From positions 1 to 64,000 of IMG/VR virus record IMGVR_UViG_3300020577_006811: a stretch of 64,000 nucleotides of DNA. One strand, written 5' to 3'. This DNA comes from a virus. Lineage: Duplodnaviria > Caudoviricetes. Of the stretch, positions 5,571 through 33,422 are shown piece by piece; the stretch's first letter is position 1, and each line of letters begins with the position of its first letter. Under the pieces are notes generated by a model. It ran no database searches, had not been told where the DNA came from, and saw only the letters and a list, made by a program, of their open reading frames with translations. A program made the translations under genes and the position numbers.

Positions 5571-5918
5571 TCATGCCAGATGTAAAGGCATTCCGCGCCA
5601 CCGCCTTAGGCGAAAACGGCCTTCTAAGAAGGGCCTGTTTTGGCCGTTGCCGCGCAAAATGGTTTCATCGGATTGATCGGGTACGGCTCCAAACAGGCTA
5701 GTTGGAGGGGGAAAGATCATCCAGGCGTACTCAGAACCAAGGTAGGAATCGACAGCCGTTGAAGCCCCTTCCAGCTTAAGCGGCGCCGTTCCGAGCAATG
5801 AAAGAGGGTTGATAATCTTCGCCGGAAGGACGGATACCGGCATCAGACTGCTTGCCCGGACAATTGCCGGTGCGGCAAGGAAACCAAGCGCACCTGTCAG
5901 CAGGCCTCTACGGTTCAT
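5571..5918 (-). CDS. twin-arginine-leader protein carrying a major capsid protein fragment
   Basis: MNRRGLLTGALGFLAAPAIVRASSLMPV leader; LLGTAPLKLEGASTAVDSYLGSEYAW matches MCP 28563-28640 at 11/26 ungapped; AGGAG RBS. Confidence 0.75.
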   Translation of the reverse strand: MNRRGLLTGALGFLAAPAIVRASSLMPVSVLPAKIINPLSLLGTAPLKLEGASTAVDSYLGSEYAWMIFPPPTSLFGAVPDQSDETILRGNGQNRPFLEGRFRLRRWRGMPLHLA

Positions 5919-5928
5919 ACTAGCTCTC

Positions 5929-6138
5929 CTAAGACGCTATGGCGGTGTACGTCGCCACCGCAGCCAAGCCTACGATGCTCGCAAACAGCACCACCATGGC
6001 GACCATGCGAATGTTGGTGCAGACGTTGACGACGTCCCGCTGCTGGCTTGCCGTAGACACCGCCTGCGCGCACAGCATGAACAGCAGCGACCAAAACGCG
6101 GTCAGTCCAAGTAGCATCATCAACTTGGTGGCGGTCAT
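5929..6138 (-). CDS. small two-TM membrane protein
   Basis: Two hydrophobic stretches. Confidence 0.6.
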   Translation of the reverse strand: MTATKLMMLLGLTAFWSLLFMLCAQAVSTASQQRDVVNVCTNIRMVAMVVLFASIVGLAAVATYTAIAS

Positions 6139-6455
6139 ACCGAACCCACCCGAAAGAACGTCGGTATGTCGCCGGAAGCCGCGACCGCGTCCGACGCATT
6201 CGCGACCTCTATGCCAATCTCCTTGAACTTGGTTTTTGATGTCCCGCCAATGTCAACCCACTCAGCGACATGGTTCCCATATTGGTCAAATCCGGAGACC
6301 AACACTGCGCCAGCGCGGCCGGTCTTGTACGGCAGCGGCAGGATCGCGCGAGTTTCCACGGGCAGCACCGACACCGGCATCAGGCTGGAAACCCGGACGA
6401 TGGCAGGGGCGGCAAGCAAGCCAGCAACCCCAGTCAGAAACCCCCTACGGTTCAT
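6135..6455 (-). CDS. twin-arginine-leader protein carrying a fragment of the virion domain found in 30627/32424
   Basis: MNRRGFLTGVAGLLAAPAIVRVSSLMPV leader; VSGFDQYGNHVAE...FKEI resembles VVGYDLYGYPMSE...FKYI; ATGA overlap with the upstream gene. Confidence 0.75.
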   Translation of the reverse strand: MNRRGFLTGVAGLLAAPAIVRVSSLMPVSVLPVETRAILPLPYKTGRAGAVLVSGFDQYGNHVAEWVDIGGTSKTKFKEIGIEVANASDAVAASGDIPTFFRVGSV

Positions 6456-6748
6456 GGCTTCACTTCCCGCGCTTTCAGCATCTCGTCCGCAAGCCGGTAG
6501 CAGGTCTCGGCGACCAACTCGTTGCTCCACCCGCCGTTCGCCCGCGCTGACGCCGAAATCACATGGCCCATGGCCTGCCCAGCCAGCCAATCGCGAATCG
6601 ACATCCCAGTGTGGCCCGGGTCGTGGTAACTGCCGCCGCTTCCGTACCAACGGCCTTGTCCTGGATCAGGAATGGCTGAGGTTGTCGTTTGCGGGACGTA
6701 CTGCGTTGCAGGCCGCGGGAACGCCGGGCCGCCGTCGTGCTGTGTCAT
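6452..6748 (-). CDS. conserved phage protein (DGGPAFP...GMSxRDxxAxxAM family)
   Basis: DGGPAFP and GMSIRDWLAGQAM motifs. Confidence 0.8.
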   Translation of the reverse strand: MTQHDGGPAFPRPATQYVPQTTTSAIPDPGQGRWYGSGGSYHDPGHTGMSIRDWLAGQAMGHVISASARANGGWSNELVAETCYRLADEMLKAREVKP

Positions 6749-7414: not shown

Positions 7415-7942
7415 TCACCAGTATTCCGGAAACCGAAGATCCGGGCCGTATTCCTCCGTCAGGAGTTCGTCGCACAGTTCGGCGTAATATGCCGGGTCTT
7501 CCGTCTTCCAATCTGCCAACGTCATGCATTCGTGGCAGACAAGCTCATCGTCGGGCAGCACATAGTAATCGCTAGGGTCGCATTCATCCCAGTTGCAGCG
7601 CTCGCACGTGCCCATCCAGCCGGCAATGCGATGCGCTTCATTGCGCCCAGTCGTTTCCAGCTTATCGTCTAGGGCCTTGACGCGATGCCCCTCGGGAGCG
7701 CCATAGCATTCGCAGTCCTCTGGCGTGCAGCCTTCGCAAGAGCCGCGCTCGTCCATCCATTCCAGCATCGCGTCGCGAAGCGTCGGCGCGCGCAGCAACT
7801 GCCAGTCTCGGCCACTCTCTGTGCCGATAGCCCACACAGGGTGCAAAACGGGTGGCGCCACAGGCGCGGCAGCCACTGCAGTCGGCACAAGCGGCAATGC
7901 AGCGCCGGCTGCGGCCCCAATTAGAAATTGCCTGCGGTCCAT
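7415..7942 (-). CDS. twin-arginine-leader, Cys-rich protein
   Basis: MDRRQFLIGAAAGAALPLVPTAVAAAP leader; CEGC, CERC and CHEC motifs. Confidence 0.75.
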   Translation of the reverse strand: MDRRQFLIGAAAGAALPLVPTAVAAAPVAPPVLHPVWAIGTESGRDWQLLRAPTLRDAMLEWMDERGSCEGCTPEDCECYGAPEGHRVKALDDKLETTGRNEAHRIAGWMGTCERCNWDECDPSDYYVLPDDELVCHECMTLADWKTEDPAYYAELCDELLTEEYGPDLRFPEYW

Positions 7943-7950
7943 AAGCGCCC

Positions 7951-8106
7951 TCACTTCTTGCCCGCTTCGCGCAAGGCGGCGGCAACTCGTTCCTCAACGT
8001 GCTTGACAAAACACGTTGGATGAAAGGCGTGCCCTGGTTCTCGCAACGGGGTTTCCCAAGACAAGAAGGCAAGCCTGCAATGAGTACAAACTTCGGTCTG
8101 CTGCAT
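7951..8106 (-). CDS. small Zn-binding protein (51 aa)
   Basis: Manual translation MQQTEVCTHC...FHPTCFVKH; CxxC...HxxC. Confidence 0.5.
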   Translation of the reverse strand: MQQTEVCTHCRLAFLSWETPLREPGHAFHPTCFVKHVEERVAAALREAGKK

Positions 8107-14391: not shown

Positions 14392-14850
14392 ATGCTCTCC
14401 CGCCGCCACCTTGCGTCTGCCGCCGCAGCGCTCATCGGCGCTGTTGGCCTTGCGCGCCCAACGCAGGCGGCTCTCGCGGATCAAGACGACGACTTCACCT
14501 TCCTCCAGGCCAAGCGCGCGCAGCTCCTAGCCGCGACGCACGAAGCCGGTCAGCGCGATCCCTACGGCCGCGAGGTGGACATTCAGCGCGTGGTGCCAGG
14601 TGATCTTGAGCTTGTGGTCCAGTCCTGCAACGGTCTTGACCGCAAGACACGTTATGCCCTGATCCCGATTGATGCCTTGCGCGAGGACTTCAAGGCCGCG
14701 TGGTTCCGCGCCATCGCGCACGTGCTGCCGCCGCTGGAGAACACAGACATTCCAGCGTGGTCTGCGGCCAAGTTCTATGATGATGTGCCGCCGGCCGGCT
14801 GGGAAGTGGTGGGCGAATCCGAGAGCCACGTCATCTGCAAGAAGGTCTAG
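14392..14850 (+). CDS. twin-arginine-leader protein
   Basis: MLSRRHLASAAAALIGAVGLARPTQAA leader with an AxA-type cleavage site. Confidence 0.7.
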   Translation: MLSRRHLASAAAALIGAVGLARPTQAALADQDDDFTFLQAKRAQLLAATHEAGQRDPYGREVDIQRVVPGDLELVVQSCNGLDRKTRYALIPIDALREDFKAAWFRAIAHVLPPLENTDIPAWSAAKFYDDVPPAGWEVVGESESHVICKKV

Positions 14851-15741: not shown

Positions 15742-18672
15742 ATGCACGCGCCTGCCGATCTCCGCCAGAGGAAGGAACGCATCGCCGCGCTTATCTACGA
15801 AAAGCGCAAGCGGGAAAACCGCATCGTTATGGAAGACAGCCTCTACGAGTTCACGCGCGCGGCGTGGTCTTCCATTGAGAGCAGCACCTTCCAAGACAGT
15901 TGGGCCATTGAGGCGCTGTGCGAGCACCTGCAGGCCGTTACCTACGGCCACATCAAAAGATTGCTTATAAATTTCCCGCCGAGATGCGGCAAGCCGGTCG
16001 CGCACGACAGCCTTGTGCTCACGCGGGCTAAAGGGTTGGTTAAAATTGATCAGATTATCGTCGGGGACGAGGTTCTGACTCACAAGGGCAATTGGAAGCC
16101 AGTAACTGCCGTCCACCGCCAGGGCGTGCTGCCAATATTGCGTGTGCATACTGCTGGAGGCCGCATGGTAGAAGCTGCGCCAGACCACCCGTTTTTGACG
16201 CCTAATGGGTGGGTGGAGGCTGGCGCCCTTATGGTTGACGATGTATTGGGCATCGTACCTCCGCAATCGCCGTGCGGACGAAACTCCATACCTTTAGAGG
16301 AGGCCCGTTTGCTCGGGTACTTTGTTGGCGACGGGCATTGTGGCGGCACGCCAAACATCACATGCGCGGATGACGACATAGCGGCCGACATCATCCATTG
16401 CATCCGTGCGACCGGATTCGTTGCCGCCGACCAGTCGTATCGCATGGCGAATACCGGATACATGCTTCGCCGTATATCAATGAAGCCAATTAGCCACGCA
16501 AAGGAGCGCCGGCACAAAGGCTACAAAGGGCCCGTTCGGCAATGGCTGGCGGACCGTGGCCTAGACCATCAGTCATCATACACAAAGATGGCGCCATCTA
16601 GCATCATGGAGGGCTCGGATGACATCGTGGCCGCTTTCTTAGGGGCCTATTGGTCCTGCGATGGGTTTATCACAGCGAGAGGAAGAAAGGGCGACGGCGT
16701 CGAACGGACCGACCTGCAAATTGGTTGTGACAGCGTCAACCAAGCGTTCATGCGACAGGTTCAGACATTGTTGGCTCGTCTCGGGATAAACTCGCATGTC
16801 CGGACCAAGGTCAACAAGAAGCTCAAAACCAAGCGGCAAGGCGACCAATACGTTTCTTATAGCTTGACCCTCCGCTCGCAAGACGACTGTTATCGTTTTG
16901 CCCAACGCATCAAGCTAAAGCATTCCAAGCGCTTTAAGCTGGAATACGAATACAAACGCCGGTTTGATTTTGACCGCCCCATATGGGGTGAAGTGATTGT
17001 TTCCGTTGAAGAGGCTGGTGAGAAAGAATGCTTATGCCTTACTGTGGCTGATGATGAAAGTTTCACGGCTAACGGATTTGCCGTGCACAACAGTTCAGTC
17101 GCATCCATATGCTGGCCGGCTTGGACATGGGCGCAGCCTGAAGAGCGCCGCTCGTTCGTATGTGGCCCAGGCACGCAGTTCCTTACGGCGTCGTACAATC
17201 ACGCGCTATCCTTGAAACTCAGCACTGCCAGCCGGCGCCTGATCCTCTCGCCGTTCTATCAAGAGTATTGGGGTGACCGGTTTAAGCTTGCAGGCGACCA
17301 AAACTCTAAAACTCAGTACGACACGGACCAGGGTGGCACGCGCATATCTACGTCAATCGGTGGTAGTCTTATCGGTATCGGCGGTGCGGTACTACTAGCG
17401 GACGACCCCCACAACACAGAGTCCGTCGAAAGCGAAGCCGAGCGCGAGACTGTGCTTCGTTGGTGGAAGGAATTCAGCAGCACGCGCCTCAACGACCCGA
17501 ACGAGTCTGCCATCGTCGTGGTCATGCAGCGACTGAACGAGGCTGACGTCAGCGGCGTCATCCTTGAAAGCTCGCGCGACTGGACGCACCTCATGCTGCC
17601 AATGCGCTACGACGAAACGCGCCATTGCCGCACGGTCATTGCCCCCGGAAAGTTTTGGGAAGATCCCCGCAAGGATACAGGCGAATCCTTGATGTGGCCG
17701 GAGCGCTTCGGCGCGCAGAAGGTCAAGGAGATGGAAGACGATCTTGGGCCGTACATGGCGTCCGGTCGTCTCCAGCAGCGTCCGTCTCCGCAGGGCGGTG
17801 GCATTCTCAAGCGCGAATGGTGGAAGACTTGGGAAGAGCCAGAGTACCCGTACTGCTACTATAAGTGGGCGTCTGCCGACACGGCTTATACGGAAGCCGA
17901 AGAGAACGACCCCACGGGTTTTACGGTCTGGGGGCTCTTTGAGATTGCGCACCAGCCGCACATCATCCTCATGGATGCGTGGCGCAAGCGATTGGAACTG
18001 CACATTCCGCAGCAATGGGAAGACAAAGACGGCACCCCATCCAGCCGATTGGAGCAGGTCAAGTCGTGGCAGCGTGCAGCGTGGGCTCAATACAAAGCCA
18101 TGCAACAAGCACAGCAGGGTATGAAGCCGCCGCAGATTTCGCCCGAGTTGGAGCCGTGGTCCACGTACATCCATTACGGCATCAGCAACGCCGACCGCTG
18201 GCCCGACGAAACCTACGAGATGTGGCGACTGCGCACACAGGAGAAGTGGGGTCTGTGCGAATGGATCGCGCATTCGTGCAGGCGCTTCAGCGTCAACGAA
18301 CTTCTGATTGAGGCTAAGGCGACCGGCATCACAGTCGCTCAAGAGCTTCGGCGGCTGAATGGCAACGATGGCTGGGGCATTCAACTAAAGACTCCGCAGG
18401 GCGACAAGGTCGCACGTGCCTATGCGGTGCAAAGCACGCTAAGCTCCGGGCTCGTATATGCGCCAGACAAAGCCTGGGCCGATCTTGTGCTTGAGGAAAC
18501 CAGTTCGTTTCCCAAACACCGCTATAAAGATTTGACCGATTCTACCTCAATGGCGTGGCTTCACGTCCGCGAGATGGGCATGTTGACTAGACCTGAAGAA
18601 CGGTTGCTTGCCGAGCAAATGGCCGCACAATACCGGCCGCAAACCGCCCCACTTTACCCAGGATCGCGATGA
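15742..18672 (+). CDS. terL: terminase large subunit (intein-interrupted)
   Basis: Spliced Walker A LINFPPRCGK|SSVAS; Walker B LLADDPH; VVMQRL; QQRP; C-terminal nuclease SADTAY / IEAKATG / DLTDSTS. Confidence 0.95.
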   Translation: MHAPADLRQRKERIAALIYEKRKRENRIVMEDSLYEFTRAAWSSIESSTFQDSWAIEALCEHLQAVTYGHIKRLLINFPPRCGKPVAHDSLVLTRAKGLVKIDQIIVGDEVLTHKGNWKPVTAVHRQGVLPILRVHTAGGRMVEAAPDHPFLTPNGWVEAGALMVDDVLGIVPPQSPCGRNSIPLEEARLLGYFVGDGHCGGTPNITCADDDIAADIIHCIRATGFVAADQSYRMANTGYMLRRISMKPISHAKERRHKGYKGPVRQWLADRGLDHQSSYTKMAPSSIMEGSDDIVAAFLGAYWSCDGFITARGRKGDGVERTDLQIGCDSVNQAFMRQVQTLLARLGINSHVRTKVNKKLKTKRQGDQYVSYSLTLRSQDDCYRFAQRIKLKHSKRFKLEYEYKRRFDFDRPIWGEVIVSVEEAGEKECLCLTVADDESFTANGFAVHNSSVASICWPAWTWAQPEERRSFVCGPGTQFLTASYNHALSLKLSTASRRLILSPFYQEYWGDRFKLAGDQNSKTQYDTDQGGTRISTSIGGSLIGIGGAVLLADDPHNTESVESEAERETVLRWWKEFSSTRLNDPNESAIVVVMQRLNEADVSGVILESSRDWTHLMLPMRYDETRHCRTVIAPGKFWEDPRKDTGESLMWPERFGAQKVKEMEDDLGPYMASGRLQQRPSPQGGGILKREWWKTWEEPEYPYCYYKWASADTAYTEAEENDPTGFTVWGLFEIAHQPHIILMDAWRKRLELHIPQQWEDKDGTPSSRLEQVKSWQRAAWAQYKAMQQAQQGMKPPQISPELEPWSTYIHYGISNADRWPDETYEMWRLRTQEKWGLCEWIAHSCRRFSVNELLIEAKATGITVAQELRRLNGNDGWGIQLKTPQGDKVARAYAVQSTLSSGLVYAPDKAWADLVLEETSSFPKHRYKDLTDSTSMAWLHVREMGMLTRPEERLLAEQMAAQYRPQTAPLYPGSR
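15994..17091 (+). mobile_element. intein (366 aa) with LAGLIDADG homing endonuclease
   Basis: Starts PVAHDSLV after GK; block B AAPDHPF; LLGYFVGDGH and FLGAYWSCDGF; ends SFTANGFAVHN|S. Confidence 0.92.
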
Positions 18673-28412: not shown

Positions 28413-29324
28413 ATGGCAGCTAATAGCGCACAAATTCGCAACCTCCTCCTCCCGGGCCTGTACAAGGTCGCGGGTCAGTACGAGCGTTACCCCAAGGAGT
28501 GGTCGCAGATCTTTACGACCGTCAAGAGCACCCTGCAGACCGAATCTGCCGTGCAGACCCGCATTCTGGGCCTCGCGCAGATGAAGGTGGAAGGCGGCGC
28601 AACGGCCTTTGACAACAACATGGGCCAGCGCTGGGTGTGGAACGCCACCGCCTTCGAAGTGGCGCTCGGCTACGCAATCACCCTGCGCGCCATTGAAGAC
28701 AACCAGTACACCAAGGATTTCAACATGATGAACCTGAAGCTGATCGACAGCTTCAGCCAGTTCAAGGAAATCCAGGGTGCCAACATTCTCAACAACGGTC
28801 AGACCTACGATCCGACCGTTGGCGGTGACGGCGTGGCTCTGTTCTCCACGGCGCATCCCTACGACCTCGGCACATGGGCCAACACGTTCTCCACGCAGTT
28901 GGACCTCAACGAGTCGTCCCTGCTGCAGGCCTACGTGAATATCGGCTCCACGTTCGTGGACGAAGCCGGTCTGCGCGTGAACGCCAAGGCCACCAAGCTC
29001 ATCGTCCCCCCAGCCCTTGAGCCCGTTGCCCTGCGTCTGATGCGCTCGGAAATGCGCCCCGGCACCAGCAACAACGACCCCAACGTCATCCCGATGATGG
29101 AGGCCGGCACCGACAAGATGATGGTCTACCATTACCTCACGTCCAACTACGCGTGGTTCGTGAAAACCGACAAGGACGGCCTGCACTACTTCGACCGCAT
29201 CGCATTTGATGCGGACTCCTGGATCGACAACGTCACGGACAATATCCTACATAAAGGGAGAGAGCGCTACACATTTTCCTACCGCGATCCCCGAGCCATT
29301 TGGGGAAGTTTCCCTACATCCTAA
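28413..29324 (+). CDS. major capsid protein
   Basis: AQIRNLLLPGL, K.EG....D, .ALG.AIT..AIEDN.Y, DGVALFSTAHP, LIVPP.LE..A.RL, RY.FS..DPR motifs. Confidence 0.9.
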   Translation: MAANSAQIRNLLLPGLYKVAGQYERYPKEWSQIFTTVKSTLQTESAVQTRILGLAQMKVEGGATAFDNNMGQRWVWNATAFEVALGYAITLRAIEDNQYTKDFNMMNLKLIDSFSQFKEIQGANILNNGQTYDPTVGGDGVALFSTAHPYDLGTWANTFSTQLDLNESSLLQAYVNIGSTFVDEAGLRVNAKATKLIVPPALEPVALRLMRSEMRPGTSNNDPNVIPMMEAGTDKMMVYHYLTSNYAWFVKTDKDGLHYFDRIAFDADSWIDNVTDNILHKGRERYTFSYRDPRAIWGSFPTS

Positions 29325-29491
29325 CAAAAATGGGGCTGAGAGCATGTACCGCTCTCAGCCCAATCCTCTAATATCGCAAACTGACCTGCTCACGGTAAAT
29401 TAACAATTAAAGTCGAAGGAGGCCTTGTCCTGATATGGGTGCGGCTATACACATATCTCTGTCGGTAGACCGCCCATCGAAAGGAACGCCC

Positions 29492-30619
29492 ATGTCCCGT
29501 CACGCTGAGAACGTTTTGTCCACGGTCACGCAAGATCGCCTCATGCATCTTCTCGCCTACGACCCTGACACTGGATCACTGTCATGGCGCAACCCCTTGT
29601 CCCCCGCCGTCCGAGCTGGAGACGTGGCCGGAACGGTGTCCGGTAAAAACAACAAATATCGGTATGTATCCATTGATGGCAGTGTGTTTCTTGCGCATCG
29701 GCTTGCGTGGCTTATGGTTTATGGTGCTTGGCCAGGGGCCGAAATTAGTGCGCGAGACGGCAACCTTCTCAATTTAAGAATTGGAAATCTCTACATCCGC
29801 TCCAAGGCGGAAGTTATTGCGGCGCGCAAGACCCGCTCTAAGTCCGGCATTAAAGGCGTCTATCAACAACCTGGGGGCAAGTGGTCGGCTCAAATTCGGC
29901 GCGACTACCAATTTGTGCATTTGGGCACGTTTGCGACTAAAGAAGAGGCTGGCAAAGCGGTGGCCGCCGCAAATGATCAACCACTTGATAAGTGGCCGCG
30001 CAAAGAAACGAATGACCTAGCGCGGCGCTCAACACGCAACAGCCTCTTGCATGGACTTTGGAAGAGAACCTTGCGCGACAACACCGTTGCTCCTGAATGG
30101 AACGCCTTTTCGGCTTTTGCCGCCGATGTAGGAGAAATGGCGTATCCGCACTGCAGGCTTGTCCCGCTGGATGGAAATGCAGTTCTTGGGCCCGAAAACT
30201 TCAGTGTTGAAGCCCGGGCGAAATTCGATCGCAAGACACCAGAAGGACGCCGCGCGTACTATTTGCACAAAAACAAAGTGCGCAAGCCGCAGATGCGCGA
30301 ACACCATCTTCAGCGAAAATTCGATCTTTCGCTTGAGGAGTACGCCGCCATGTCAAAGGCTCAGGGCGATGTATGCGCCATCTGCAGGCAGCCAGAAACG
30401 GCAACGCGCCTTGGCACGAAATTGCCCCTTGCCGTGGATCACTGCCACGGCAGCGGCGAAATTCGCGAACTGCTGTGCCGTGATTGTAACCACGTGCTTG
30501 GCAAGTTCAAAGACGATCCCTCGCGCTTCCGCGCGGCAGCCGACTACCTTGATCGGCATCGCGCGAAAGTTGATAGCGTTCCCGCGTCTTCTCCCGTCCC
30601 CCTAGAAAAGGAGCGCTAG
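29492..30619 (+). CDS. composite homing endonuclease: degenerate HNH + AP2 + second degenerate HNH-like module + endonuclease VII domain
   Basis: FLAHRLAWLMVYG.WP; SGIKGVY...W.AQI...HLGTF; CAICRQP...LAVDHCH...RELLCRDCN. Confidence 0.85.
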   Translation: MSRHAENVLSTVTQDRLMHLLAYDPDTGSLSWRNPLSPAVRAGDVAGTVSGKNNKYRYVSIDGSVFLAHRLAWLMVYGAWPGAEISARDGNLLNLRIGNLYIRSKAEVIAARKTRSKSGIKGVYQQPGGKWSAQIRRDYQFVHLGTFATKEEAGKAVAAANDQPLDKWPRKETNDLARRSTRNSLLHGLWKRTLRDNTVAPEWNAFSAFAADVGEMAYPHCRLVPLDGNAVLGPENFSVEARAKFDRKTPEGRRAYYLHKNKVRKPQMREHHLQRKFDLSLEEYAAMSKAQGDVCAICRQPETATRLGTKLPLAVDHCHGSGEIRELLCRDCNHVLGKFKDDPSRFRAAADYLDRHRAKVDSVPASSPVPLEKER

Positions 30620-30626
30620 TCGCACC

Positions 30627-31583
30627 ATGACAGAAGTCGTTTACTCTGGCCCGCTCGTCACGGCTCCATCGAACCCGCTGGGCTCGACGGGCACGGGCTC
30701 GGCCAACCAGAACCCTCAGTCGGCGCCGAATTTTTGGCTGCACGGTGATGCGCTGATCGATCCGCGGACGCCGTTTACCTATAAGCCCGGTAGCGGCAGC
30801 GGCCCGTCTGGCAATTCGATGGCGTCGCGGCCGGTGTACGGCTGGTACGGCATGGGGTGCCAGGTGATCAACGCGGTTCCGTCCACGATTTCGGCGGTGA
30901 ACATTGCGGCGACGCAGGCTGCGGCGGCGACGATCACGCTGGTGTCGTCGTCGGGTGCTGGCATCACGGTGGGCGTGTCGATCACGAATGCGGTGACGGG
31001 CGCGACGGTGACGGGTCTGCTGGCGATTGACACGGCGATGGCGGGTCAGTCGTACGGGCAGGATGCGAAGTACAACGTCTGGGACCCGACGAAGGCGATC
31101 TCGCGCAATGTGCGCATTACGTCGGCTGCGGATGACAGCGGCAAGACGTTTACGGTGGTGGGGTACGATCTCTACGGCTACCCGATGTCGGAAGTGATCA
31201 CGGGCTCGAATGCGAGCGTGGCTTCGGGGGTGAAGGCCTTCAAGTACATTGCGTCCGTGACGCCGTCCACGACGCCGGCCGGCAACGTATCGGTGGGCAC
31301 GGGCGACGTGATCGGTCTGCCGCTGCGGTCGGATTACTTTGGCGACCTGCGCATTGTTTACAACAACGCGGTGATCACGGCCTCGACGGGGTATACGGCG
31401 GCGGATACGACGTCTCCGGCGACGACCACCACGGGCGACGTGCGTGGCACGTATGCGCTGCAGACGGCTTCGAACAACTCGCGGCGTCTGCAGGTGATCT
31501 TGATGCCGCCGGCTGCGAACTGCGCGACCGTTACTGGTTTGCTGGGCGTGGCGCAGAACCTGTCGTCCACGAACGGCAGTTAA
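30627..31583 (+). CDS. virion structural protein
   Basis: Ser/Thr/Ala/Gly-rich; RNVRITS..D.SGKTFTVVGYD.YG.P.SE domain. Confidence 0.75.
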   Translation: MTEVVYSGPLVTAPSNPLGSTGTGSANQNPQSAPNFWLHGDALIDPRTPFTYKPGSGSGPSGNSMASRPVYGWYGMGCQVINAVPSTISAVNIAATQAAAATITLVSSSGAGITVGVSITNAVTGATVTGLLAIDTAMAGQSYGQDAKYNVWDPTKAISRNVRITSAADDSGKTFTVVGYDLYGYPMSEVITGSNASVASGVKAFKYIASVTPSTTPAGNVSVGTGDVIGLPLRSDYFGDLRIVYNNAVITASTGYTAADTTSPATTTTGDVRGTYALQTASNNSRRLQVILMPPAANCATVTGLLGVAQNLSSTNGS

Positions 31584-32423: not shown

Positions 32424-33422
32424 ATGAGCCGCCCCATCACAGTCACCGTCGGCGGCCTGGCCGCTGCGTCTGCAACCAAGCTCGGGTTGAGCCAGAAGGC
32501 TGCGATTGCGGGCACGAACTATCTGGTGCTCAACGGCGCGTCGGGCTCGTTCGTGGCCAACAGCGTATGCGCCTCGCAGACGCCGGGCGGCGCGGGCGCG
32601 CTGGTGCTCAACGGCACGCTGGCCAGCAGCGTCCAGACGGGAACCGCAATTGCCTACCTGCCGTCACTCTCCCGTATCTACATTACAGGTGGCTCCAACG
32701 AGAGCGGCAAGACGTTCACCGTGCTCGGCTACGTGTTCACGGCTGCGGGCGGGCCCGTGGCGGTGACGGAGACCATCACTGGGCCCAATGCGTCTACGGT
32801 CTCCAGCATCTACCAATACCAGCAGATCATCAGCATCACGGCCTCGGCCGGAACTGCGGGCGCGATTACCGTTGGCCACTACGGGACGGCCACGCAGGAT
32901 TACGCCCGGCAGGTGATCATCACGTCGGCGGGCGACGATTCATCGAACACGTTTACGATCTCAGGTACGGATTGGGCCAACAACCCGATCAGTGAGAACC
33001 TGGCGGGCGCCAACGCGGGCGTGGCTACGTCCGTCCTGAGCTACAAGACCGTGACCAGCATTGCCAGCAGCGCGGCGGTCGCCTCTACGTTGACCATTGG
33101 CACGAACACTGTGGCGTCGTCGGACTGGGTGCGGTTCGATGACTATTCGGCTGCTGCGCAGGTGGCGATCCAGGCCAGCGTGTCCGGAACCGTGAACTAC
33201 ACGATCCAGCAGACCATGGATGATCCAAACGATCCATCGCGGAATATCTACAACAATCCGGCTGGCGTGGTGTGGGTCAATCACCCTGATGCGGCATTTG
33301 TTGCGGCATCGGCGACAGCGCAAGGCAACTATGCCTACACCCCTATCTTCGCACGCGTGGTGATCAACAGTGGCACGGGTACGGTGCGGGCAACTTTTAG
33401 GCAAGTTGGGACCTGGTCCTGA
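32424..33422 (+). CDS. virion structural protein with two copies of the 30627-type domain
   Basis: RIYITGGSNESGKTFTVLG and RQVIITSAGDDSSNTFTISG. Confidence 0.8.
   Translation: MSRPITVTVGGLAAASATKLGLSQKAAIAGTNYLVLNGASGSFVANSVCASQTPGGAGALVLNGTLASSVQTGTAIAYLPSLSRIYITGGSNESGKTFTVLGYVFTAAGGPVAVTETITGPNASTVSSIYQYQQIISITASAGTAGAITVGHYGTATQDYARQVIITSAGDDSSNTFTISGTDWANNPISENLAGANAGVATSVLSYKTVTSIASSAAVASTLTIGTNTVASSDWVRFDDYSAAAQVAIQASVSGTVNYTIQQTMDDPNDPSRNIYNNPAGVVWVNHPDAAFVAASATAQGNYAYTPIFARVVINSGTGTVRATFRQVGTWS

Follow-up and report, generated by a model that had tools for sequence, protein, structure and literature searches.

A small phage gene, ORF A, encodes a pre-protein in which a leader with the features of a Tat signal is followed by two joined pieces of the major capsid protein (MCP) and a C-terminal module. 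We are highly confident of the identity of ORF A and of the MCP origin of its pieces. Compared with related phage proteins, ORF A appears as one case of a family-wide design and not as a one-off. The best explanation we can offer is that it acts as an export-tagged linear mimic of capsid segments, a reading to which we give a probability of roughly 50%; export, cleavage and the binding partner are inferred. All coordinates refer to the window, i.e., the whole stretch of 64 kb of viral DNA that was analyzed.

ORF A, its product and its genomic setting

ORF A lies in a leftward operon of small genes (Table 1). Sequence reading placed an AGGAG 7 nt upstream of its ATG. Its stop codon overlaps the start ATG of the next gene as ATGA, and stop/start overlaps likewise link the genes upstream. 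Composition gives no support for coding, because GC3 of ORF A is low, i.e., only 0.55. Over the entire gene, dN/dS was about 0.3. Taking the Shine-Dalgarno sequence, the ATGA coupling, the size of the family described below and dN/dS as our bases, we regard ORF A as a real, translated small gene, a judgement made from sequence alone.

Table 1 Position of ORF A, its parts and related genes in the window
Feature	Position	Strand	Description
ORF A	5571..5918	−	115-aa pre-protein; coordinates with stop codon
Shine-Dalgarno AGGAG of ORF A	5926..5930	−	overlaps the stop (TAG) of the 69-aa membrane-protein gene lying upstream (sequence reading)
Tat-type leader	5835..5918	−	ORF A residues 1–28, MNRRGLLTGALGFLAAPAIVRASSLMPV; RR codons at 5907–5912
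MCP piece 1	5748..5798	−	ORF A residues 41–57, LLGTAPLKLEGASTAVD; copy of MCP 51–67, E-loop tip as judged from element order
MCP piece 2	5712..5753	−	ORF A residues 56–69, VDSYLGSEYAWMIF; copy of MCP 238–251 (..YLTSNYAWF..)
C-terminal module	5574..5711	−	ORF A residues 70–115, 46 aa, ..FGAVPD..ETILR..GRFRLRRWRGMPLHLA; kept in homologues
69-aa gene	5929..6138	−	hydrophobic protein, two predicted membrane spans; between ORF B and ORF A, coupled to both
ORF B	6135..6455	−	paralogue of ORF A: same leader, different cargo; stop overlaps next ATG
MCP	28413..29324	+	303 aa, HK97 fold; source family of both ORF A pieces

The structure predicted for ORF A alone was disordered (pLDDT 49.6), and a fold search was hence not possible. 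ORF A had no Pfam or PHROG capsid match. The full set of HK97-fold elements, i.e., A-domain, P-domain, spine helix, N-arm and E-loop, is absent, and only two short local HMM matches were found. ORF A is not a capsid protein and cannot be a shell subunit. Its C-terminal module is conserved in the homologues P0161, P0162, P0163, P0165, P0005 and P0006. A six-frame profile search found no source for this module in the window (best E 0.2), and in a search of the 82-kb genome the module matched only itself.

ORF A and ORF B agree in their first 30 residues, which are encoded with many synonymous differences; ORF B belongs to the same coupled operon. The 82-kb virus record contains exactly these two copies of the leader gene. 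The first cargo stretch of ORF B, ETRAILPLPYKTGRAGAV, resembles portal residues 462–478 (ITKAVMPLPYKDVSAAMV; 454–482), but its 3.4 bits against a null maximum of 5.7 are not significant, and a portal piece is not shown; P0021, a relative of ORF B, reached 6.8 bits against the portal with the same null maximum. An earlier claim that ORF B resembles a domain of the proteins encoded from 30627 and 32424 was unsupported at pairwise level (BLASTP E 0.22 and 68). These two structural proteins (30627–31583 and 32424–33422, both +) have in common a repeated domain of about 70 residues, ..ITSAxDDSxxTFTxxGxD..ExxxGxNA.., that is 42–43% identical and present twice in the latter.

The membrane-protein gene between ORF B and ORF A is strongly coding (GC3 0.83) and is not a conserved neighbour of the leader family in other phages. 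No partner gene was conserved in more than 6 of 69 loci of the family, the commonest being an HNH endonuclease. In many other phages the leader gene sits inside the terminase–portal–scaffold–MCP operon, in some cases immediately ahead of the MCP gene. Because its position varies between phages, no single expression time can be assumed.

Two endonuclease-like features lie elsewhere in the window. A 976-aa terminase-like ORF (15742–18672, +) appears by eye to contain an intein/homing-endonuclease-like insert (HNS junction, LAGLIDADG-like). A 394-aa ORF (29435–30619, +) that separates the capsid gene from the following structural gene has an HNH-type Cys/His motif close to the C-terminus and probably encodes a homing endonuclease.

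The match between ORF A and the major capsid protein

The window MCP was identified by PF10124 (28.3 bits, cut-off 20.1) and by a match to phrog_371, major head protein. With tblastn it matched genes annotated as capsid in phages of Pelagibacter, Roseobacter and Caulobacter. Its AlphaFold model (pLDDT 79.5) matched HK97 gp5 structures in Foldseek with a probability of 1.0 and E 5e-12. Residues 51–77 are almost invariant in 117 MCP homologues, with K58, G61, D67, G71 and R73 found in 117/117, and ORF A matches near-invariant positions of this stretch.

The preliminary description had aligned the 26-residue peptide LLGTAPLKLEGASTAVDSYLGSEYAW (5721–5798, −), which lies inside ORF A, without gaps to MCP 51–76 with 11 of 26 residues identical, and we reproduced this alignment. 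In BLASTP, ORF A residues 41–66 matched MCP residues 51–76 (nt 28563–28640) with 30 bits and a pairwise E of 6e-6. The observed Smith-Waterman score of 68 was never reached in 20,000 shuffles of either partner, and a Gumbel fit gave p ~1e-5. With an all-against-all reading, however, the search space grows by a factor of about 5,000, and since the corrected p is ~0.05, the pairwise match alone is borderline. When the cargo of ORF A was compared with the whole window in six frames (tblastn), MCP was the top match with E 1.6e-4. At the DNA level 43 of 78 positions are identical (55%), with 10/26 at third codon positions. The copy of the MCP stretch is therefore old, as had been stated before in the claim that it is not a recent one.

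We built an MCP-family HMM from the 117 homologues and used 11,438 shuffled cargos as a null (maximum 7.5 bits). ORF A gave a local match to MCP 50–77 with 10.7 bits (i-Evalue 1.2e-5), i.e., above every shuffle, and its closest homologue, P0004, reached 15.6 bits at MCP 48–77. All six ORF-A-type homologues keep K-x-E-G, as expected from the earlier claim, and keep it within L-G-x-A-x-L-K-x-E-G. In the aligned homologues this motif is directly followed by D-Y-L-(T/S)-S-N-Y-x-W-F.

A profile of piece 1 from six homologues matched MCP 52–67 with 17.2 bits, whereas 5,000 shuffles gave at most 5.8; this piece is also supported by BLASTP, the MCP HMM and hhalign (E 4.5e-4). Piece 2 appeared as a second BLASTP segment with 7/13 identical residues. 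Its profile from seven homologues matched window MCP 241–250 with 19.5 bits (null maximum 9.3, 5,000 shuffles) and found the same place in 117/117 MCPs. The stretches of the MCP gene that correspond to the two profile matches are 28566–28613 (residues 52–67) and 29133–29162 (residues 241–250). Homologues add MCP-identical residues that are absent from ORF A, i.e., ATAFD in P0004 and DYLTSNYAWF in P0006, the latter 10/10 identical to the MCP consensus. As the motif profiles match MCP 52–67 and MCP 241–250, the cargo of ORF A consists of two joined MCP pieces. They overlap by two residues at the joint and stand end to end in ORF A, whereas in MCP they are about 175 residues apart.

By the homologue profiles, ORF A residues 57–69 correspond to MCP 241–250 and not to MCP 68–76. 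The ungapped alignment holds for its first 17 residues only; the last nine are coincidental and belong to piece 2. Consistently, hhalign confidence between ORF A and MCP was high up to D and low beyond. The proposal of an E-loop-like capsid segment retained under selection thus stands for MCP origin and selection, whereas the single 26-residue segment has to be replaced by a mosaic of two MCP pieces.

We mapped the segment on the MCP model, where the order of elements is compatible with its suggested E-loop position. In the DSSP assignment, a helix (5–11) and a strand (43–49) are followed by the extended residues 50–71, strands 72–79 and 81–90 and the spine helix (110–127). MCP 50–71, following the N-arm helix and preceding the spine helix in the model, fits the E-loop position, a placement based on element order without residue-level superposition on HK97. 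When the cargo of ORF A (residues 31–115, with alignment) was modelled in complex with MCP, the score was 0.00, without controls, which speaks neither for nor against an interaction.

Selection had also been proposed for the MCP-like part, and here dN/dS among ORF A homologues was indeed 0.04–0.22, with synonymous sites near saturation. The leader gave 0.04–0.08 and the C-terminal module 0.26–0.71. The sample comprised only four sequences with dS near saturation. Purifying selection on the leader and the MCP pieces of ORF A is shown by these values.

A cargo-only search found three relatives at 51–53% identity; in two of these, the cargo follows an N-terminus of quite another kind. The cargo module of ORF A also sits behind non-Tat N-termini (P0161, P0163), and cargo modules hence move between different heads. 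The N-terminal part of P0161 resembles a window ORF at 6452..6748 (−) with the motif G-M-x-x-R-D-x-x-A-x-Q-A-M. A metagenome tail-fibre protein of 1,392 residues, P0164, contains at least six repeats (..STSVDGYLSQTDWDTFNNK..) that are weakly like ORF A residues 52–69; this is probably convergence of a short β-hairpin motif.

The leader and its family

By sequence reading, ORF A has N-R-R-G-L-L-T at residues 2–8 and ORF B has N-R-R-G-F-L-T, which we accept as the twin-arginine motif expected near the N-terminus of a Tat signal, (S/T)-R-R-x-F-L-K. Inspection of the ORF A leader revealed a weakly hydrophobic h-region (GALGFLAAPAIV), a basic residue (R21) and V-R-A before the cleavage site. A signal-peptidase site is likely after V-R-A (residue 22), with cleavage inferred, and the conserved stretch SSLMPV comes after it. 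In its residue pattern the leader resembles a Tat signal, whereas export is inferred.

Proteins of 40–220 residues with the leader MNRRGFLTG..AAPAIVRASSLMPV at the N-terminus were assigned to one family. It comprises at least 2,443 small phage proteins of 41–219 residues in metagenomes, and ORF A matched the family profile with 101 bits (E 1.7e-23). The leader family was present in 74 IMG/VR loci, whereas about 185,000 species genomes yielded only 8 loci. Within the family, conservation is limited to the leader; the cargo is variable. In 121 members R3, R4, P17, V20 and M26 are invariant, all of which are present in ORF A. Members have no Pfam domain on record, and the family is without a name in Pfam, PHROGs or NCBIfam. 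In a blind Pfam scan of the 121 members, 18 matched TAT_signal (PF10518; E ≤ 0.05, best 3.9e-4) and four 'Major capsid protein GP7', whereas ORF A and ORF B had no PF10518 match at E ≤ 1 and no NCBIfam match at E ≤ 0.1. Tat substrates are among the language-model neighbours, which we take as a lead only.

Two members with a related cargo (..AGFVERL..) are encoded in the bacterial chromosome of Bradyrhizobium erythrophlei, where they presumably sit in prophages. That the leader was copied from a host signal is not shown, given this Bradyrhizobium genome with two members and a host-signal likeness of E 0.08 or worse. The window has two further small genes with different RR-type leaders, 7415–7954 (−) and 14392–14850 (+), which are outside the ORF A leader family; the former has a weak PF10518 match (E 0.0035).

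With the MCP HMM, cargos of other members matched diverse parts of MCP: 4–36 (L031 ORF, 29.2 bits), 4–35 (P0233, 17.3 bits), 79–101 (L074 ORF, 12.9 bits), 81–107 (L006 ORF, 6.8 bits), 92–129 (P0219, 13.6 bits), 133–149 (P0205, 8.7 bits), 226–251 (P0006, 14.4 bits), 268–293 (P0176, 17.2 bits) and 270–302 (P0033, 15.2 bits). The viral contigs of three such members also encode an MCP that belongs to the same family, and against the cognate MCP their pieces ranked 1st, 2nd and 5th of 125. We also compared the cargos of leader ORFs with their own IMG/VR loci (tblastn, ±10 kb) and found in-frame matches at E ≤ 1e-4 for 13 of 80, with none in the other two sense frames. Out-of-frame or antisense capture was rejected, as the few off-frame matches were mirror images of in-frame pairs.

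The capsid families matched by cargos were PF13252, PF11651 (P22 coat), PF20911 (epsilon15 gp7 type), PF07068 (T4 gp23) and PF10124; the portal family was PF12236. When about 200 cargos were compared with the 26 late proteins of the window phage (10,781 aa), significant matches were almost only to MCP, then to portal, and none was to terminase. Support for portal pieces is modest (8.6 and 6.8 bits, null maximum 5.7), and a pattern search in IMG/VR found no portal relatives. Some cargos are capsid/portal mosaics: in L027 (5964–6287, +), a GP7-family capsid piece (51–68) and a portal piece (~310–330) are joined at a W-R/A-M microhomology. Most family cargos match nothing. Sequence matching of this kind shows that cargos of the family repeatedly contain in-frame parts of the MCP encoded by their own phage and, in some cases, of its portal.

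Possible functions and comparison with known systems

As an export-tagged mimic, ORF A would act in steps. Tat export happens after translation, and the MCP-like cargo would thus be exposed in the cytoplasm first. There it may engage whatever normally recognises the copied MCP stretches; candidates are an adjacent MCP subunit while the head assembles, or a host factor sensing capsid protein. Afterwards the leader would bring the mimic, possibly with its partner, to or through the Tat translocon; the reason for a post-translational route would be that the cargo has to encounter something in the cytoplasm beforehand. We see an even chance that the function of ORF A depends on mimicking capsid. 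The Tat-coupled sequestration step is tentative, and we consider it less likely than not. Against this explanation, the pieces include core elements of the capsid fold and not only the N-arm and E-loop that dock in trans, which is a poor fit with docking on folded MCP. The Tat-signal score of ORF A below threshold, its low GC3, the varying position of the gene and the lack of a conserved partner gene close by also speak against it. A bolder version, which we rather doubt, sees poly-epitope mini-proteins in tailed phages of many lineages, i.e., strings of short linear copies of capsid and portal behind a dedicated Tat leader, which would bind a factor recognising capsid or portal in the cytoplasm and drag it to or through the Tat translocon, as hitch-hiker export or sequestration. 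This factor could be a host immune sensor or an assembly intermediate of a rival phage.

Other accounts of the same data have to be weighed. That two unrelated β-hairpin-like sequences resemble each other by chance is very improbable: the window-corrected pairwise p would leave room for it, and a tail-fibre repeat (..STSVDGYLSQTDWDTF..) resembles the same stretch too, but the profile tests lie above every shuffle, homologues carry extra MCP-identical residues and the same design recurs with other capsid families, by which chance is already contradicted. ORF A might also encode a secreted peptide made by in-frame capture of any handy coding DNA, with a function to which the capsid origin is irrelevant and which could be Tat saturation, envelope modification or signalling. 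Such a peptide would suit the many family cargos without any match, the C-terminal module without a detectable source and the occurrence of the same cargo behind other N-termini. It is quite unlikely nonetheless, given that the IMG/VR matches are in frame only, that they concentrate on MCP and portal, that they recur across five capsid families, and that MCP-invariant residues are retained at the low dN/dS found for the MCP-like part.

The commonest pieces are N-terminal arms and the E-loop, which in HK97-fold capsids dock on neighbouring subunits. ORF A could hence be a dominant-negative or assembly-modulating fragment that docks in trans where a neighbour's E-loop or N-arm would sit. Head assembly of related superinfecting phages could be poisoned, or the phage's own assembly could be tethered or regulated at the membrane; T4 starts its proheads on the inner membrane. 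The place of the gene within the head-morphogenesis operon of many phages and the portal pieces among the cargos agree with such a role. We remain doubtful, though, as pieces from the core of the fold occur as well, binding is not shown by our data, and the fragments resemble their own MCP about as much as that of others, so that self-poisoning must be avoided. Alternatively, ORF A could be a decoy aimed at a host defence that detects capsid or portal; it would present the recognised stretch without triggering, and export would remove it. Host immunity can recognise short MCP stretches, as in the triggering of Lit by the Gol peptide of T4 gp23; CapRel and Avs are further sensors of capsid or portal. 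A decoy would match the choice of capsid and portal over the equally conserved terminase, the preservation of residues invariant in the MCP family, and the character of the genes as optional, fast-shuffling accessory genes, often several per genome. We nevertheless consider it unlikely, as no defence gene or sensor has been identified and the known sensors are cytoplasmic, where a decoy needs no export leader.

If the pieces are functional mimics, the leader family represents a large group of accessory genes that phages have built to a common design. Capsid and portal stretches would then be recognised by something important, phages of at least five capsid lineages having copied them independently, and head assembly or capsid sensing would be linked to the host Tat pathway. 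To our knowledge, the Tat pathway has so far not been implicated in tailed-phage biology. Should the poly-epitope version hold, the mini-proteins would be a novel type of phage counter-defence or of weapon between phages, and the Tat pathway would have been put to a novel use. Even with a mundane function, the leader family provides an annotation rule for thousands of phage ORFans. Our full-text literature searches found no description of a leader joined to capsid pieces; the family is in no paper or annotated library that we found, and its function is inferred only.

With Tat signal peptides and small Tat substrates (PF10518, TIGR01409), ORF A shares the RR-x-(F/L)-L motif at a distance of two residues from the start, a hydrophobic region that is short and rich in Gly/Ala/Pro, a basic c-region residue and the V-R-A site. 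In contrast to ordinary Tat signals, the entire 28-residue leader including SSLMPV is conserved across very different phages, and ORF A stays below the PF10518 HMM threshold, its export being inferred. With Mu gpT-like HK97-fold MCPs (PF10124/PF25209) it has in common the family-invariant residues kept in ORF A 41–57 and 56–69, but represents only about 30 of 303 residues and is predicted to be disordered, without a capsid fold.

The Gol peptide of T4 gp23, with the Lit protease of prophage e14 as its counterpart, is a precedent for an MCP stretch of about 30 residues that is itself a biological signal. Gol, however, lies within the full capsid protein and is not a separate gene, lacks a leader, and sets off a host defence instead of serving as a phage-encoded tool; no Lit-like partner is known for ORF A. 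The T4 internal proteins IPI–IPIII, which have a common capsid-targeting leader, are similar in combining a conserved short N-terminal leader with hypervariable cargo, in several copies per genome and shuffled between phages. Their leader directs them to the inside of the prohead, the prohead protease cleaves it, and their cargo is not capsid-derived, whereas the leader of the ORF A family is Tat-like. The animal capsid-derived restriction factors Fv1 and enJS56A1 are pieces or copies of viral capsid under selection that act on capsid assembly or recognition. They are host genes from endogenous retroviruses, whereas here a virus carries the pieces behind an export-type leader.
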